From positions 128,001 through 192,000 of IMG/VR virus record IMGVR_UViG_3300020576_005257: a stretch of 64,000 bases of DNA; one strand, written 5' to 3'. A model generated the notes under the pieces. That model made no database searches. It saw only the letters and a program-made list of their open reading frames with translations, and had not been told where the DNA came from. This document shows positions 42,001 to 48,448 of this stretch, in pieces. This DNA comes from a virus. Lineage: Duplodnaviria; Caudoviricetes. The first letter of the stretch is position 1, and each line of letters starts with the position of its first letter. The translations under genes and the position numbers were made by a program.

Positions 42001-42239
42001 GTGTCTGAGAAAAGGGTTTTAGTATCGTGTACACCAACAATAGGACCTAAGATACGTCTTAATGTGCTGCTTTGATCACTTAAAGCATTAGCTGCGTTAG
42101 AACCCAAAGTTCTGGGGGCGAGATAAGCAACCGAGCCCAAACCAACAGCAGCAATACCAGCATATTTAGCCAATGCTGAAATTTTATCAGCAAAGCTATC
42201 ATCATGCTCTTTGTGGTATTGAGAATTGGATCCTAGCAT
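36009..42239 (-). CDS. Tape-measure-position giant virion protein with PD-(D/E)XK nuclease-like and SNase-like domains
   Basis: 2076 aa directly after tail chaperones; GTFAH...E...EIKT...QLMYY; SNase-like KLAGV...VNHELIESEYA. Confidence 0.6.
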   Translation of the reverse strand: MLGSNSQYHKEHDDSFADKISALAKYAGIAAVGLGSVAYLAPRTLGSNAANALSDQSSTLRRILGPIVGVHDTKTLFSDTFNYFADSVPQVRRSFLRGAMRDIRREALTESLRKNVHEDSLEHFDKIAPHLTDVFHEFLSGEVEHMSGKLLSDSTMQRFMESTKGVRFNYMTENVKPAVLLEQHRASVKQSMDDAIDLAKRRQVSTEKNLFGGKNGSKNRDVIFGALAKHAREMNASEKAGLDLQGMLHNKNHRGLTIEEITGSHREKVDQYLRNTGHKKTADEIFGKIESNLIELGGEQHAELREAYLKSFSGLGVDKNGDVLSLVHARNSRRTFVNRAKQALQFPLQPIKFNIPFTLGGAYSPDKTPVKFLGEMSKLGELKRMGLNYDNEFGLSIGEQIFSFGRQGTDFTVDRVNAEQASRFIFLNNERSTVLKEMAGTRANLLDNAFSDFSDQVSTKGFLKAAKESLQRPEGGSKTVLENLLHHFQPELFNLNVNDGELKLVPKNIMGSLAGKILGVDPTATSVTSDQIHPTLISQFLKENTGKITPNVELDLQRRMIGGMANLDFNDLSPTVKKLASKARKDGIPLSEDLIRLMELSDNPEALADHLGTMDLEALSNNQVNSTLEKALSDFIESPNRIYDISAPAQNKVELNSVLTPPTKEQVFGDDAVSKIQKDLQRGLIEEFTRASAKSELFSEVKAATGLDQDIALNLLKERGTLIDPTQIENANKIKGIFTKHLNVSSDSEFNYLFEGALKNFNPDEGSLSEGSIGQLVTAFSSHERLAGYMEDPVAKMIAAERVRSDTMLVATSIYKEEQGVSVINRLVNNLGIHDKLDEGGFRARRPSFVPEAPEEAVARYTVLPSATPSMGSLIIGNGLTYTQAMAFHLKTQLGRGFGTVDFAKGLFSANSAQGYLSTSLTALSHGAANVLDQAGLGISETDKATFGRAHTNLMIKRIIPAYIAMEAYKNINADLHNKDQEGIDDFTANVYGNARISTSKFRDRFGLTNPLKHLVYSLPGADMYYNPMDEAETREDLLYGNEQIRMGRGFLIGSRNPAYGGSVESVRPNLYRRLKSHWTEARNVQLSNPNYSFLPTITNPLAPLNALFHPHWQEDLTQKDRPYASEEEMLSYLDEHPSVGYAYEKSHTKMSKVIQTMTNLWGYKKHGMPGPGGSGPGTGGSGSGYGGGGGSLEEALQSAEPGDEDGRAFNYGYNKYASKHEYHKHKLTHKVHEVMDELLRPTGIYSGIVNQIPAYGSNEHEAFQIQDPGVSFSKSRLFYNAKMGEVFPGMYGEFFRRFMPEERQDPDAFNPLQNNQASWLPNKFRRGDPYARLSNGELILPGDAMERANPFVKPLKIRGSMVGLSEDEMVLKFLDPIGSEADEASETRMAFGTFAHKRIMRQMREQGILVGAEIAAYDDEINGSATIETLVRGKSGLEVVEIKTRGSGNINEDNEKYIDQLMYYMYLTDTKVGHLAHVNRDNPDEVRLATYKYDPKRMDAIFNRVAGARARVQEMIDNEEVSPYETYGLIDRIEVLAKAAPESREFRKYVQLAKEKGGFGGMEQRRFEIALEIAKAKTENYNLYPKRNVPTETRDLVVEAITGEGDILTEMGQFKLAGVKYDQQAFAYKDPADLLAQYGIHVGQKTSVTLIKGQFNPDVTKNTVLEAIFGDVNHELIESEYADEDYKSRNPLANQVFGRDGLGTSVTDTILHSDNMFSNKFLRVRTALEQYKRGEVYGTDEYSLKNLKDNYVVPTVNSIISKNPVVAGAQSALVASIFFRTKKMKGKAAMVAGAVGASLSLLKELNETLTGETWKPKRTRKRNDFDEYYDILTYVKESTIAEAALKAKNGERQVKTGHQQVALQAKQFEKLASDAEFKARRTMYGFDVVNGTLDEALATLPRRHRQIAESIITTATQAEKDEYYDLLPNAEKRVLGKFLGVEEDKLPTKPNLTEYFKHHNLPKSDWGGWRRDTDLDDIKLRATEHEDIKIARPSKRKLAKAKVFSEGVEVPRMNKRTKENIQRELDKLAGSGEFGNILINYETIPTSHNVIDINMQLNHDRRAEVEREKQKQLRR

Positions 42240-42817
42240 TAAAAGCCTCTTCTAGAATCGTAGCCCCCATTTTGAGCGTAAAAGACATCATCTCTTCCAC
42301 CTATATGCCCTTTAGCTTGGGCTGCTTCTAAGGCTTGACTCATTTGAGCATCAGGAGCATCTCCCACTGTAACAAAACCCTCTTCAACAGTTTTACCTGT
42401 CATATTTTCAAAGGTAATCTTGCCGACTATCAGACATTTAGCTCGATCTAGAGGATCACAGTTTCTTAGATAGGTTGGATTTAAACCTAATACAGCAATA
42501 CCTACTGCCTCATAAACCCCATCGGGATCTAATATCCAATTCTCAGCTTGGGTTAAAGTTAATTGATCTTCATCATAACCAGAAAGCTTTTTTATGTGAA
42601 AAAGCAGAGTTTGACAAGTGCCCTCTAAATCTACGTCGGGCTGGTAATTTTTAACACACTTCTTTAAGATAAATTCATCAATTTCTGTTTCTGTCTCTCT
42701 TGTTAAAGCAGCATTCCACTCACCCCAAGACAGACATCTAAAATGGTAAGACTTAGGCTTCATATCTGGGCCTTTGAGAGTTACCTCAAACCATCTAAAA
42801 TCTCTTTCAAAATCCAT
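42239..42817 (-). CDS. Tail assembly chaperone-like protein
   Basis: FRCLSWGEW...ILKKCV...GTCQTL...IKKLSGY domain; between tube genes and tape measure. Confidence 0.6.
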   Translation of the reverse strand: MDFERDFRWFEVTLKGPDMKPKSYHFRCLSWGEWNAALTRETETEIDEFILKKCVKNYQPDVDLEGTCQTLLFHIKKLSGYDEDQLTLTQAENWILDPDGVYEAVGIAVLGLNPTYLRNCDPLDRAKCLIVGKITFENMTGKTVEEGFVTVGDAPDAQMSQALEAAQAKGHIGGRDDVFYAQNGGYDSRRGF

Positions 42818-43587: not shown

Positions 43588-44415
43588 TTAATTTTGTAAA
43601 TCTTCAAATTTAATTACTTGAATGTTTCTAGCCTGGAAAGTATAGCTTTCCATAATTGGCCTACCATCATCACCTATGACTTTAGTTACACCACCCAAAC
43701 TAACTCCAATGATTTTAAGGCCAGTTGGAATTTTAGTATTTAATTTGGGTTCATGTGTATTAGTGATGCTCGGTGTCATATTATCTGTACCAGAGAATCG
43801 TAAAACTTGCTCACTTTTTATTTGGGTGCCATAAGTAATATTTAAATCAAAGCCCTCTTCCTTGGTACGGAACATGGGTGCTTCATTCAGAATAATTGGT
43901 GAATAATTACCGCCGCCACTATCCAATAAATCATCATTATATACTTGATCTACGATTTTAGATAGGGTCCTACCCTTATAACTTCCAGACCTGATAGCAT
44001 CAATGGTCGTTTTATCGTATCTAAATAAACCATACTCTGTTCCTACAGCAGGAACAGGGTTATTTGCTTCGTTGTTTCTAGATCCAGTAAGCCAATTTTC
44101 TTCTCGTTTTAGGGCACTTATCAAAGAAAAAATATAACCATCTTTCTTGAAATTAACACTCAGCTCACCAACAATTAATCTCTGACCATGCACCATACGA
44201 TCGGGTACATAGCTAGCATAACCATAAACAGGCCTAATGGGTTCTATAATCTGATAGCTAACCTGTACAGCTTCTTCTAGTCTGATATTGTTAGCATAAA
44301 CTCTAACATCCTGCCCAGACCAATAGGTTGAATCAAATCTATCTACAACCTTCCACTGCTCACCAATTTCATAAGAAGGTGGTCTGTAAGAATTATTATT
44401 TGGTGTTAGTGGCAT
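43588..44415 (-). CDS. Tail tube-like protein (paralog 3; probable tube initiator)
   Basis: YWSGQDVRVY...PVYGY...GQRLIVGEL...FDLNI...ESYTFQAR. Confidence 0.7.
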   Translation of the reverse strand: MPLTPNNNSYRPPSYEIGEQWKVVDRFDSTYWSGQDVRVYANNIRLEEAVQVSYQIIEPIRPVYGYASYVPDRMVHGQRLIVGELSVNFKKDGYIFSLISALKREENWLTGSRNNEANNPVPAVGTEYGLFRYDKTTIDAIRSGSYKGRTLSKIVDQVYNDDLLDSGGGNYSPIILNEAPMFRTKEEGFDLNITYGTQIKSEQVLRFSGTDNMTPSITNTHEPKLNTKIPTGLKIIGVSLGGVTKVIGDDGRPIMESYTFQARNIQVIKFEDLQN

Positions 44416-44624
44416 TAACTATCTCCTAAATGAACTGCATCCTGAATTTGAGACAATAAAGAAGATATTGAAATATTCAAAGCAGAAGCATCTCGATTAA
44501 GTAGAGCATAATTTGCTGTAGTTAAAGGAGAACCAGGGATAGTTGATTCCTCATAAACAGAGTTAAATGAAGCTTCATAGGGGTTTATGTTTAAAGATTG
44601 AATTGTAGTAATAATCTGGTTCAT
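44415..44624 (-). CDS. Small hypothetical protein
   Basis: 69 aa; AGGAG SD upstream; TAATG-coupled to next gene. Confidence 0.55.
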   Translation of the reverse strand: MNQIITTIQSLNINPYEASFNSVYEESTIPGSPLTTANYALLNRDASALNISISSLLSQIQDAVHLGDS

Positions 44625-44635
44625 CTTAACTCCTA

Positions 44636-45850
44636 TTAAATTCTAGTAATTGGAATTAAGCTTCCAATAGCTAACAAATTCCCATTACCATCAACCTTCC
44701 ACTTGTTATGGTGCCATACCCCATTACTAAAATATGTATTAGTGGGACCACTTAAAGCTATATTCACAACAGTACCAACCCCAGCTTCTTTTATAGATAA
44801 GATCTCTACTGGGTCCAATCTAATATCAAGTAGTACAGTTTCTAAGGAGAGGTCTGCTGTTATCTGGAAGTTATGGGGGTTTAACGGGTCAATACAGACC
44901 CTGTGGGATGTTGAACAGTAAAAAGTACCTGTCTTGGTTACAACTTCGTATATGGGCTGATTTTCAATAATGTTTTTTGCAATTACTGTTTCCTCTGTTC
45001 CTTTCCAAGAAGTAACCTTATCACCCACAATTAAATCTTCTGCTTTAACCAAAGCGAAAGGTGTGTGAATCTCAGAACCTAACAACAAACACTCCGAAGA
45101 CATCATACCCAAACTACCAGAAGCCGAAACAGAAGTTATGTTGCTAAAAGCTTCCCCTTTACTTGGCAGATTAGTAGTCTGAACATTGGAGGTTAATACA
45201 GCTTTAGGTGGCTCTGGTTGTCTTCTTTCTGGAATTGAAACTAAATTAAATTGGGATAAATCATTTATGTCAGTAAATGATTGTGCCATAAACCCATAAG
45301 AGTCCCCAATATTAGGATCATTGATATTAGCATTTCTACCAGAGTCAGTGATCTCAATACCTTTAATCATCAAAAAGGCATTATCATTAGTTGCATGGAG
45401 ACCTTTAAAGACAACTAATAAATCAAATTTAGGTAATTCGTCTGGAAGAAGTCTTAAAGCATTGTAAGCATTTCCAGACCAGGAAGCAAACTCTCTTAAC
45501 AAAGGGGCGAAGGGGTTTTCATTTATAAACGTAAAACCCAATGATCCAGCGATCATTCTATGCCCCCTAGTGGTTCCCTTGCTACCACGAGAACCTAAAG
45601 AAACAACGGGGTATTTGTCTCTGTGAGTAGAAATAGCTAAAAGAGCTAAATTATAAAGGGGAACTTCAGTTAATTTGCCCTCTTTGCTGTTTAAAGAAAA
45701 AGGAACAAGGGCAGTAACGTGCATATCGGATGGAGAATATACTTTGGCATTTTTATACATGGCTGGGATTTTAGCTCCCGTTGTGTACACATAGCCATCT
45801 AATTCTACATCACCTGCTTGTCTATAGATAGGGTCTCTATATTCTGCCAT
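44636..45850 (-). CDS. Tail tube-like protein (paralog 2) fused to a C-terminal Hint (BIL-like) domain
   Basis: YSPSD...PVVSLG...TRGHRMIAGSL...DELPKFD; Hint residues 254-382 from CLLLGSEI to GVWHHN. Confidence 0.8.
   Translation of the reverse strand: MAEYRDPIYRQAGDVELDGYVYTTGAKIPAMYKNAKVYSPSDMHVTALVPFSLNSKEGKLTEVPLYNLALLAISTHRDKYPVVSLGSRGSKGTTRGHRMIAGSLGFTFINENPFAPLLREFASWSGNAYNALRLLPDELPKFDLLVVFKGLHATNDNAFLMIKGIEITDSGRNANINDPNIGDSYGFMAQSFTDINDLSQFNLVSIPERRQPEPPKAVLTSNVQTTNLPSKGEAFSNITSVSASGSLGMMSSECLLLGSEIHTPFALVKAEDLIVGDKVTSWKGTEETVIAKNIIENQPIYEVVTKTGTFYCSTSHRVCIDPLNPHNFQITADLSLETVLLDIRLDPVEILSIKEAGVGTVVNIALSGPTNTYFSNGVWHHNKWKVDGNGNLLAIGSLIPITRI
44705..45091 (-). other. Hint domain, 129 aa, no endonuclease, +1 residue Lys
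   Basis: Block A CLLLGSEIHT...EDLIVGDKV; block B CSTSH; blocks F/G VVNIAL...TYFSNGVWHHN|K. Confidence 0.85.
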
Positions 45851-45859
45851 AAAACATAC

Positions 45860-45886
45860 GGTAGCTAGGGCTTAGCCCTAGCTACC
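45860..45886 (-). terminator. Hairpin downstream of major tail tube
   Basis: GGTAGCTAGGGC-TTA-GCCCTAGCTACC; followed on minus strand by GTATGTTTT. Confidence 0.7.
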
Positions 45887-45898
45887 CCTCAGTTGGTA

Positions 45899-46675
45899 TT
45901 AACCAACTGTAAGCGCAGTCCACGGCGAGACTGCAAGAGCAACAAAGGCCATACCCATTTGTCCGCCCATATCTGCCTGACTGATACCACCAGTTTCCTG
46001 GGTAATCTGCACACCAAACAGTGTACATTTTCTAGCTGCTCCTGACTTATTAACACCAACCAACGTGATGTCAAAAGGAGGAATCTGATCTGCGTATTGC
46101 AAAATCACATTCTTCGCAGCAGAAGCAGCATCAATAATTTGCTCCTTCAACTGTGCCTGAAGATCAGTTGCACTAAGTCCACGGAAGTTAGACAATCCAC
46201 CAAGATTGTTAGCATCTGGGCTTTGGTAGGTGAAACCACCACCAAGAGCATTAGAGCCAACTACCTGAGTTGTGTCAAAAGTGCCGTTTGACAAGTTAAG
46301 TCCATTAGTTCCTTGTGAAAGATTCCACAAATCACCAATAACTCCAAGTCTACTTTCATGTAGCCGCCAAATCTCATGTAAGAATGCATGTTGGGCAAAT
46401 TCTTGTAGAACCAGTGAACCAACGACCACCCGTTTGCCTTGGGTAAAGGCAACGGGATCGCGGCGACCCATAACATGGTTACTTACAGTTTCTGTGCTGG
46501 TGGTCCAAGAAATGGCCTCAGCGTTACCCACTTTAGTATCGTTAAAATAGACTTGATGGTCGTGACCCGAGAAAGTCTTGTCAGCATAGTCCGTTACACT
46601 ATAACTAGCCTTTTTAGGCTTATAGTTTGCGGAATATGAAGAGTAGGCTCCTCTTTGAAATGGATTAGTTCTCAT
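45899..46675 (-). CDS. Major tail tube protein
   Basis: Directly after sheath; TFSGHD...MGRRDPVAFTQGKRVVVGSL...DQIPPFDI; followed by strong hairpin. Confidence 0.8.
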   Translation of the reverse strand: MRTNPFQRGAYSSYSANYKPKKASYSVTDYADKTFSGHDHQVYFNDTKVGNAEAISWTTSTETVSNHVMGRRDPVAFTQGKRVVVGSLVLQEFAQHAFLHEIWRLHESRLGVIGDLWNLSQGTNGLNLSNGTFDTTQVVGSNALGGGFTYQSPDANNLGGLSNFRGLSATDLQAQLKEQIIDAASAAKNVILQYADQIPPFDITLVGVNKSGAARKCTLFGVQITQETGGISQADMGGQMGMAFVALAVSPWTALTVG

Positions 46676-46693: not shown

Positions 46694-48448
46694 TTAATCA
46701 ACCTGTCTAATCGAAACGACAAGCTTAATCTGTCTGATTGCGTTGGCAAGAGCCAATTCAATAAAGACGGTAACTATTCCAACGTTACCCTCTGTTCCGA
46801 GCATTTCAACTCGATAGTCGTATCCTACGCCTCTACTTCCTCTTAGACCACCACTCATGTTGTAGCCTTCAAGAACATTCTCGATTCGGCTTTCCATAGC
46901 AGCTCTAACATCAAGCCCACTAGCCTGACCCAAGAAGCCGCGAAGCGCGGTTTGAAGGTCTTTCTGGATGGAAGCTGTCATGTGTCTAGCTTGGTAGTTG
47001 CGATAATTTGAGTCTCTCTGACCAGCAGTTACGTCATCATTAACTACAAGGTTGGCTAAAGGATTAACCTGGTCTCTTACTAAGACAACGTAAGCACCTC
47101 CACCACTGATATTGTTATTCATATCAGCACCCACACCATTTTGCAACAATGTCGCATACGTATGGGGGAATGGTCGAGTATAACCCTTAATACCCGGAAT
47201 AGGAGTTTGAGTTGCTGATTGTTCTGGCGGAATCGTAGTTAAGAAAGCGGCATAGGCAACTACAGGAGAAGTTGTATAATCTCCACCCATATCTACGTGG
47301 CTATAAACCACATCAGGACCCGCAACCACGGAAACATTTGTAAATACATCGTTAACAGTACCCCTTGCACCTGCTCGACTTCGACCAGTATAAAGAATAG
47401 GACCTGCTTTAATCCACTTGCTAGCTTGTTTAAAGTAGCCATACGAAGTTGCCAAAAGGTTACTAGTAAGCCAGTTAATGACTTGGTTGTCGTCTCTGGA
47501 AGTGAAGCTTCTTGTACCAATAACACCGTGACACGGCATAATTTCGGCAGACATAGCATCAACCCAATCCGCAAAGTCATTAATGATACTAGTACTAGTA
47601 GCATTACCACCAGCAGTTACCTGATCATCAACATTAATACCAGTCAGACAAATAATATCTGCTCCGTATCGTTGGTTTCTAAGAGATTGGAAAGTTCCTG
47701 TAACCGCTGCTACAAGGCCACCCGCATAACCAAACAAACCTGAACCAGCAGCTGTGAAATGTTCTGGGCCAAAAGTTTCGCCTCTTGCAAAACAACCATT
47801 AGTACCACCACTAAAACTGGCGGTACCAGTAATACTGGCTGTTAAAGAGCTTAACGTGGAAGCAAGGAAAGGATTTAATGCATCAGCAGAGTCATCAATT
47901 TCAACGACTTTATTAGCAAATGCACCATTAACTCGGGTAATAAACTCACCTAAAGTAGTACCACTAGCACTACCTGTAAAACTTAAATTACCGCCCTTAC
48001 TAAGAGGCTGAGTTAGCGTAAAGGTGTAAGTGTCCCCGGAAATACCGAGTGACATGGTTTGTGAATTATAGATTCTGCCAGGATTCTGGGCAGTACCTAC
48101 AAGATAACCACCAGAACCCAATGTTACGGTAGCTTTAGTACCGCTAGCTCTAACGACTGTAATATCCTTACAACCAGCTGAAATAGCCTGAGCAATAGCT
48201 AGAGGAAGAGTAGCACCTGCATACTTCCCTGTCTCGGTTCCAGTAATAGGATCTAGGTAACTATTACTATAATTTGCTGGACCAAACAGCTTTTCAGCTT
48301 GAGTGGCATCATCAATCCGGACGGGCTTATTCAACGGCCCATCTAGAGCCGTACCGATAATAAGTAGGCTGTTAGTTGTGGGACCCTCCACAATTTGTTT
48401 GATTTTACCACCAATTGTGGTAAAGGTAATTCCTGGAATAACTGACAT
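46694..48448 (-). CDS. Tail sheath protein
   Basis: LIIGTALDGPLNKPV...AEKLFG N-terminus; C-terminal FLG...IRQIKLVVS; AGGAG SD. Confidence 0.85.
   Translation of the reverse strand: MSVIPGITFTTIGGKIKQIVEGPTTNSLLIIGTALDGPLNKPVRIDDATQAEKLFGPANYSNSYLDPITGTETGKYAGATLPLAIAQAISAGCKDITVVRASGTKATVTLGSGGYLVGTAQNPGRIYNSQTMSLGISGDTYTFTLTQPLSKGGNLSFTGSASGTTLGEFITRVNGAFANKVVEIDDSADALNPFLASTLSSLTASITGTASFSGGTNGCFARGETFGPEHFTAAGSGLFGYAGGLVAAVTGTFQSLRNQRYGADIICLTGINVDDQVTAGGNATSTSIINDFADWVDAMSAEIMPCHGVIGTRSFTSRDDNQVINWLTSNLLATSYGYFKQASKWIKAGPILYTGRSRAGARGTVNDVFTNVSVVAGPDVVYSHVDMGGDYTTSPVVAYAAFLTTIPPEQSATQTPIPGIKGYTRPFPHTYATLLQNGVGADMNNNISGGGAYVVLVRDQVNPLANLVVNDDVTAGQRDSNYRNYQARHMTASIQKDLQTALRGFLGQASGLDVRAAMESRIENVLEGYNMSGGLRGSRGVGYDYRVEMLGTEGNVGIVTVFIELALANAIRQIKLVVSIRQVD

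Follow-up and report, generated by a model that had tools for sequence, protein, structure and literature searches.

Self-processing Hint domains are known from inteins, Hedgehog proteins, secreted bacterial proteins and polymorphic toxins. Type-A bacterial intein-like (BIL) domains end in His-Asn and lack a nucleophilic residue at the +1 position; they mainly cleave at their N and C termini but can also ligate at low yield, through an attack on the N-terminal thioester by the amino group that Asn cyclisation sets free (PMC4031507, PMC7664689, PMC7765530). In pretoxin-Hint proteins (PF07591), the Hint domain stands before a variable C-terminal module that it is thought to release by autoproteolysis (PMC3482391), and BIL2 of Tetrahymena has been reported to form Lys isopeptide bonds, conjugating its N-flank to other proteins (PMC8616854). 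Here we describe a Hint domain at the end of a tail protein of an uncultured phage. The window analyzed is a stretch of 64,000 nucleotides (positions 128,001 to 192,000) from the 234,927-bp IMG/VR virus record IMGVR_UViG_3300020576_005257, of which the completeness is 95% (CheckV). The open reading frame (ORF) at 44636-45850 on the minus strand codes for a protein of 404 amino acids (aa), in which a domain with the tail-tube fold is followed by a linker, a Hint domain and a short C-flank. We favor the interpretation, to which we give a probability of roughly 60%, that the Hint is a type-A BIL-like autoprocessing domain that removes itself from a minor tail-tube paralog of a jumbo myovirus.

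The similarity to type-A BILs extends to every sequence feature that defines them. Like the BIL domain of C. thermocellum (PDB 2LWY), the domain of the window phage is an endonuclease-free Hint of ~130 aa with Cys1, the block-B His, a His-Asn end and no Cys, Ser or Thr at +1, and it lies in a variable region of a non-conserved protein. It differs from type-A BILs in its host, which is a phage tail-tube paralog instead of a secreted bacterial protein, in being too divergent for the cut-offs of the Pfam families PT-HINT and Hint_2, and in belonging to a subfamily with a recurrent Lys at +1, of which no mention was found in the reviews consulted. The frame and all landmarks given by the initial annotation, which had been made from the sequence alone, were verified by a script and proved exact. 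The tail-tube-fold domain comprises aa 1-205 (45236-45850, minus strand) and the low-complexity Pro/Ser/Thr linker aa 206-253 (45092-45235, minus strand); the linker ends in ...SVSASGSLGMMSSE, with Glu253 as the residue before the N-terminal scissile bond, and was modeled with a predicted local distance difference test (pLDDT) score of ~33. The Hint domain itself has 129 aa (aa 254-382; 44705-45091, minus strand). It starts at Cys254 (codon 45089-45091), contains CSTSH at residues 312-316 (Ser313-x-x-His316, His codon 44903-44905) and terminates with GVWHHN at His381-Asn382 (Asn codon 44705-44707). The C-flank of 22 aa (aa 383-404; 44639-44704, minus strand) begins with Lys383 (44702-44704) and is followed by the stop codon (44636-44638); its last ~15 residues were modeled with poor confidence.

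Pfam recognized nothing in the whole 404-aa protein, and phmmer with the single sequence found no match among the PDB sequences. An exhaustive phmmer search with residues 240-404 against 1.84 billion representatives yielded 28 distant relatives (E 3e-9 to 9e-4), with matched spans that ran from just before Cys254 to just past Asn382. Ten of them were scanned, and eight carried Hint-type Pfam families (PT-HINT, Hint_2, Intein_splicing, Hint); one of the other two showed only the radical-SAM and SPASM domains of its host protein, and one had no family match. Cys1, the block-B His and the block-G His were invariant in the alignment of relatives, and the terminal Asn was kept in at least 90% of its rows. 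An AlphaFold model built from this alignment, with Hint and tube domain folded as separate models, reached a pLDDT of 89.4 and a predicted template modeling (pTM) score of 0.83. It showed the horseshoe-like all-beta fold of the Hint superfamily, with Cys254 in block A and His316 in block B. The model had 53 PDB matches at E<=1e-3, and those listed were inteins, BIL and Hedgehog Hint domains: 2LWY was the first (E 1.9e-9), followed by BIL2 of the Tetrahymena BUBL1 locus and by class 3 and gp41-1 mini-inteins, and Hedgehog Hint domains occupied ranks 41 and 45, far under BILs and inteins. 2LWY was also the best match of the alignment profile, at E 1e-21. These results bore out the Hint assignment of the initial annotation. 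The C-terminal domain is a true, compact Hint of 129 aa with the full set of catalytic residues and no endonuclease insert, and within the Hint superfamily it falls, as a divergent member, on the side of the BIL and pretoxin-Hint domains.

The N-terminal domain, previously described as tube-like, was also confirmed as such. Residues 33-198 match phrog_9206 (E 1e-12), the family that the adjacent 258-aa protein, the major tail tube protein, matches as well, and the two proteins have in common the motifs G-R-R...T-x-G-[HK]-R...GSL and PD-E/Q-hP-x-FD. By tblastn, the tube domain is 27% identical to gp141 of Bacillus phage 0305phi8-36 and to the 'tail tube protein' (gp027) of KLEB27-3. In these two phages the gene order is sheath, tube, tube paralog, a further structural gene, chaperones and a long structural protein (tape measure), and the record of gp141 is annotated as 'tail tube paralog; identified as virion protein by mass spectrometry'. 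Foldseek matches of the tube-domain model were nearly all phage-tail, contractile-injection and Hcp chains, with modest scores (E 1e-4, template modeling score ~0.55 on target), and a tube-domain profile gave only chance matches against PDB sequences. Taken together with the position beside the sheath and tube genes and with synteny, the host protein belongs to the tail tube family and is the syntenic counterpart of the gp141 'tail tube paralog' of 0305phi8-36. Neither gp141 nor gp027 has a Hint, although both share gene position with the protein of the window; gp141 (502 aa; L002:6034-7542) has a C-terminal extension of ~300 aa that is not a Hint and has no Pfam match, and gp027 has none. A role as a minor tube paralog is the only one supported for the host protein, and the 'initiator' role that had been suggested for it is a guess.

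In order to place the Hint in the history of this family, relatives of the tube domain were collected with degenerate-pattern scans, which recovered 13 metagenome and four IMG/VR loci, to which the Logan contig L004 was added. Reading the ORFs at these loci revealed ten paralog lineages without Hint, of 175-476 aa (L004, L008, L009, L011, L012, L013, L014, L016, L018, L019 and L024, with L016 and L019 forming one pair). Eight of these orthologs have 222-278 aa and consist of the tube domain and a short unconserved tail; that of L004 (248 aa) lies at the corresponding position of a locus with complete synteny. The ortholog of L013 (175 aa) is nearly tailless. That of L008 (399 aa; L008:33-1232) has an unknown module of ~190 aa as C-terminal extension, and that of L018 (476 aa; L018:2133-3563) ends in a CarboxypepD_reg-like beta-sandwich. 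With gp141, these two mark the C terminus of the tube-paralog family as a hot spot for varied added domains.

Among the relatives found, a Hint was present, besides the window phage, only in L021 and L022, two contigs of one phage type. The L021 locus is syntenic with the window (a 305-aa gene, sheath of 584 aa, tube of 267 aa and paralog of 552 aa, then genes of 277, 228 and 228 aa), and its paralog consists of a tube domain, a 72-aa linker, a Hint (Cys278, CTKTH, WNHN405), Lys and a C-flank of 146 aa. In a maximum-likelihood tree the window and L021 paralogs are sisters (support 99/98), and the window Hint matches that of L021 much better than any other (score 259, versus 132 at most). The two proteins are 49.7% identical over the tube domain and 39.8% over the Hint (129 vs 128 aa, essentially ungapped), and the catalytic Cys, TxxH and HN-K are all intact in L021. 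Their linkers and C-flanks, 22 aa in one and 146 aa in the other, are unalignable, with K-[WF]-x-[VI]-(x)-DG at the start of the C-flank as the sole likeness. The simplest history would be a single gain of the Hint, at the end of an unconserved C-terminal tail, in the common ancestor of the window phage and the L021/L022 phages. A recent acquisition from a source of other base composition was rejected: the Hint-coding part has a G+C content of 0.38, and both its G+C and its G+C at third codon positions are the same as in the rest of the gene. Other searches added little. Word-indexed homolog searches returned nothing beyond the protein's own cluster and a single Hint-less ortholog, with no shorter relatives; a DNA-level search of phage genomes and a single-protein scan of IMG/VR gave no match; and a scan with an alignment of the two orthologous Hints led again only to the L021 and L022 contigs.

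Compared with the near-identical variant L025, the Hint carries eight synonymous and three non-synonymous differences, and the tube domain two of each. Since the Hint has been retained in the sister lineage and its changes relative to L025 are mostly synonymous, it is under purifying selection and is no decaying insert. The initial annotation had named decay in homologs as one outcome that would speak against its reading; the survey instead showed a Hint that is kept in L021/L022 beside a hypervariable C-terminal tail. Its overall interpretation thus stands as regards an endonuclease-free, BIL-like and non-decaying Hint. A meaningful 22-aa peptide is not supported: the C-flank is hypervariable, and this specific peptide is therefore unlikely to matter.

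The processing we propose would follow the type-A BIL route. After translation, Cys254 would turn the Glu253-Cys254 peptide bond into a thioester, and cyclisation of Asn382 would cut the Asn382-Lys383 bond. Cleavage products would dominate, as in the type-A BILs studied: most of the protein would end up as a tube paralog of ~253 aa, a separate Hint and a short peptide. In a minor fraction, the amino group exposed on the Lys383 fragment may attack the thioester and join the two flanks again. The features on which this prediction rests are the His381-Asn382 end, the lack of Cys, Ser or Thr at +1 (Lys383) and the variable location, seen in flanks that are unalignable between orthologs on both sides and in the ten other paralog lineages that are Hint-less. 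In addition, the N-flank, with 253 aa here and 277 aa in the L021 protein, resembles a typical complete Hint-less ortholog in both size and architecture, so cleavage at Cys254 would regenerate the usual protein of the family. C-terminal extra domains of tube proteins, such as those of lambda gpV, SPP1 gp17.1* and T5 pb6, are found on the outer surface of the tube, where they would collide with the sheath of a contractile tail. The Hint would therefore have to leave; we infer that a tube ring with a bulky C-terminal domain could not be accommodated under the sheath. The closest functional analogy in phage tails is offered by the peptidase S74 intramolecular chaperones of tailspikes and fibers, C-terminal domains that remove themselves once folding or assembly is complete. 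These differ in having an unrelated fold and chemistry, with a Ser-Lys dyad in a trimer, and in being on fibers and not on tube proteins. That processing is programmed for tail assembly, or joins the tube protein to another molecule, as the initial annotation had gone on to propose, can be put forward only as conjecture.

The same chemistry could serve another purpose. A BIL- or mini-intein-like element may have landed once in a dispensable C-terminal tail and been tolerated there as a selfish or neutral passenger that itself contributes nothing to assembly or infection, its activity being maintained solely because failure to excise the 17-kDa domain from a tube subunit would be harmful. We consider this possible but unlikely. 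It would account for the sporadic distribution, with the Hint in one clade among ~12 paralog lineages, for its seat in a linker whose flanks vary freely, for a C-flank that ranges from 22 to 146 aa, and for an N-flank that is by itself a normal protein; two other inteins reside in the same genome. Purifying selection on the Hint is expected here too: since an inactive passenger would be harmful, selection for activity alone is no proof of a benefit to the phage. However, there is no homing endonuclease or remnant of one, so the spread and persistence of such an element need another explanation, and it was not lost by simple deletion while the tube domains diverged to ~50% identity. One stop codon in the linker would be enough to delete the appendage, and its retention in spite of such an easy loss hints that it is of some use.

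Several observations weigh against the self-removing BIL-like domain that we prefer. When the C-terminal part was isolated, Pfam gave PT-HINT (PF07591) at E 0.087 (13.5 bits versus a cut-off of 27.7) and Hint_2 (PF13403) at E 0.13 (13.1 bits versus 28.4), and the link to these families is therefore transitive, because it is the relatives and not the window domain that pass the curated cut-offs. Block B has Ser313 (SxxH) where Thr is usual and where the L021 ortholog has Thr. The tube-domain model, built from a shallow alignment, is only moderate (pLDDT 54, with 70-80 in the core). In the cluster member P0002, all four amino-acid differences lie in the Hint or the tail, which may mean that this region is under weaker constraint than the tube domain. 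Cleavage, the bonds cut and the extent of cutting are inferred from the sequence. Finally, the recurrent Lys at +1 is unexplained by a plain cleavage model.

This Lys follows His-Asn in the window phage, in the L021 ortholog and in 23 of the 40 complete Hint ends of distant relatives, a tally slightly biased in that the relatives were recruited with a query itself containing HNK. Cases with Ser or Cys at +1 are mostly ordinary inteins with large insertions or lie in large conserved-looking proteins (one of them, P0026, looks by eye like a phage terminase); cases with Lys occur after Gly-rich linkers or in tandem ...HN-K-G-G-C... arrays. Three relatives (P0004, P0009 and P0014) have two to four head-to-tail Hint domains joined in this manner, and the two that were scanned, P0004 and P0009, also have a Tim44-like domain. 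In the radical-SAM/SPASM proteins P0013 and P0019, a BIL-type Hint ending in His-Asn-Lys or His-Asn-Ala follows a Gly-rich linker between the radical-SAM and SPASM parts. Two members of the closest Hint subgroup (P0027 and P0012) are small Gly/Pro-rich proteins that end in the Hint plus ~13 residues; their genes (L005:2028-2720; L006/L007:8001-8639) lie immediately downstream of a NifU_N-like gene, a recurring context.

Conservation of this residue raises the question of whether the Cys254 thioester is resolved by an amine and not by water. Either the side chain of Lys383 or its freed alpha-amine would attack, giving a spliced or isopeptide-branched product of 275 aa, or a lysine of another tail protein would, cross-linking the C terminus of the paralog into the tail. 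Such a thioester-driven ligation seems to us improbable. The Lys tally, including the tandem arrays, argues for it, and so does the second-best structural match of the Hint model, Tetrahymena BIL2, which is reported to form Lys isopeptides (PMC8616854); type-A BILs, moreover, can ligate without a nucleophilic side chain (PMC4031507), and a spliced form would fit a family in which other paralogs carry folded C-terminal extensions (L008, L018, gp141). BIL2 (BUBL1 polyubiquitin-like locus; PDB 6Y75, 6TMM) is thus a precedent for thioester resolution by a lysine amine, but it is eukaryotic, flanked by ubiquitin-like domains and only ~15% identical in sequence. Against ligation, the C-flanks are unalignable and one has only 22 aa, so that a ligated product would hardly have a conserved function; the BILs described in the literature mostly cleave; and the preference for Lys may merely favor Asn cyclisation or reflect ancestry. 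It is equally doubtful that the conserved Lys acts as the nucleophile in a Hint subfamily of its own, with the thioester resolved by Lys383 or by a lysine of a neighboring tail protein. If it were, a phage tail would contain an ATP-free covalent link of the isopeptide type, a chemistry so far reported only for the BIL domains of Tetrahymena BUBL.

The order of carrier, Hint and variable C-terminal module mirrors that of PT-HINT toxins (PMC3482391), and many distant relatives of the window Hint score as PT-HINT. The paralog could accordingly be imagined as an Hcp-like carrier whose Hint keeps a variable C-terminal peptide or protein within the tail and frees it during infection, for example upon contact with host thiols. 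The variable C-flanks would agree with this, as would a small lineage-specific ORF of 69 aa (44415-44624, minus strand), placed directly 3' of the Hint gene where an immunity gene would sit. We regard such cargo release as very improbable. A toxin domain would not fit into the 22-aa tail, for which there was no family match; the 146-aa C-flank of L021 matched nothing in Pfam or among 50,697 phage genomes; and the 69-aa ORF is missing from the L021 locus. C-terminal extra domains of tube proteins, besides, are on the outer face and not in the lumen. In contrast to pretoxin-Hint toxins, the locus has no toxin domain and no demonstrable immunity gene, and a polymorphic toxin was rejected, the two tails and the 69-aa ORF being without family or phage-genome match. 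The 69-aa ORF has a strong Shine-Dalgarno sequence, is kept in variant L025, is missing at the equivalent position in L021 and L004, and had no family match in profile libraries. A derivation of this ORF or of the 22-aa tail from the L021 C-flank, as a piece split off from it, was likewise rejected, as Smith-Waterman scores were no better than those of shuffles (p ~0.3-0.5).

The initial annotation had held that the domain is not a mobile intein and that it resembles the BIL and pretoxin-Hint domains that mainly cleave. The first view agrees with the missing endonuclease, Lys at +1 and the location in a non-conserved linker; the second is in line with published work on such domains (PMC7664689, PMC4031507). 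Mini-inteins (gp41-1, DnaB, class 3 DnaB) have the same fold and catalytic residues, whereas here +1 is Lys, the insertion site is unconserved and Hint-less orthologs simply end near it. A canonical class 1 intein was rejected, as +1 is Lys383 (Lys in the ortholog too) and not Cys, Ser or Thr, the N-flank alone (253 aa) corresponds to the usual Hint-less form, and the C-flank is without counterpart in short-tailed orthologs. A Hedgehog-type Hog domain was rejected as well: only 22 residues follow the Hint, where a Hog domain has a sterol-recognition region; His-Asn is present, whereas Hog domains show no Asn cleavage at the C terminus; and Hedgehog domains rank low among the structural matches. 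The two inteins of the same genome, in contrast with the window Hint, are canonical LAGLIDADG inteins; they are located outside the window, in open frames of 794 and 1130 aa, at G000:C1:192886-193554 (minus strand; L027/L029) and G000:C1:~94500 (plus strand; L028).

Searches of the full-text literature for Hint or BIL together with tail tube, phage or tail fiber retrieved only work on terminase inteins and polymorphic toxins, with no paper describing a Hint on a phage tail-tube protein. Likewise, tblastn of the Hint against the 50,697 phage genomes detected no such fusion, only weak matches to inteins, which lay in portal genes of mycobacteriophages and DnaE-like polymerase genes of Gordonia phages. 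To our knowledge, no tail-tube paralog fused to a BIL-type Hint has been described before; the chemistry involved probably belongs to a known type. Because the Hint is intact and conserved across two diverged lineages, and the Hint-less form is known, the paralog provides a clean natural system for two questions: the purpose of a BIL domain that is poor in cargo, and the role of the recurrent Lys at +1. Cleavage alone would represent a new maturation route for tail proteins, and ligation, if true, would mean that virions contain a new type of covalent bond and could offer a tool for joining proteins.

The gene lies in a myovirus structural module, and every large gene of the window is on the minus strand. 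Upstream of the paralog gene are the major tail tube gene (258 aa; 45899-46675, minus strand; phrog_9206, E 3.5e-25), whose product is 72% identical to its L021 counterpart, and, further upstream, the sheath gene (584 aa; 46694-48448, minus strand). Between the major tube stop codon and the ATG of the paralog there is a terminator-like, GC-rich hairpin with a 12-bp stem and a T-run (45860-45886, minus strand), and no evident Shine-Dalgarno sequence was found 5' of this ATG. The hairpin and the absent Shine-Dalgarno sequence would fit a low-copy tube paralog that is expressed below the major tube gene, and the hairpin probably sets the expression ratio of the two genes.

The comparison with variant L025 also revealed an uneven distribution of differences in the neighboring genes. 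Dense patches of synonymous differences were located in the genes for a 275-aa protein (43588-44415; 26 differences) and a 192-aa protein (42239-42817; 15 differences), and the sheath, tube and 230-aa genes were almost identical. Such a patchy pattern looks like a recombination mosaic within the population.

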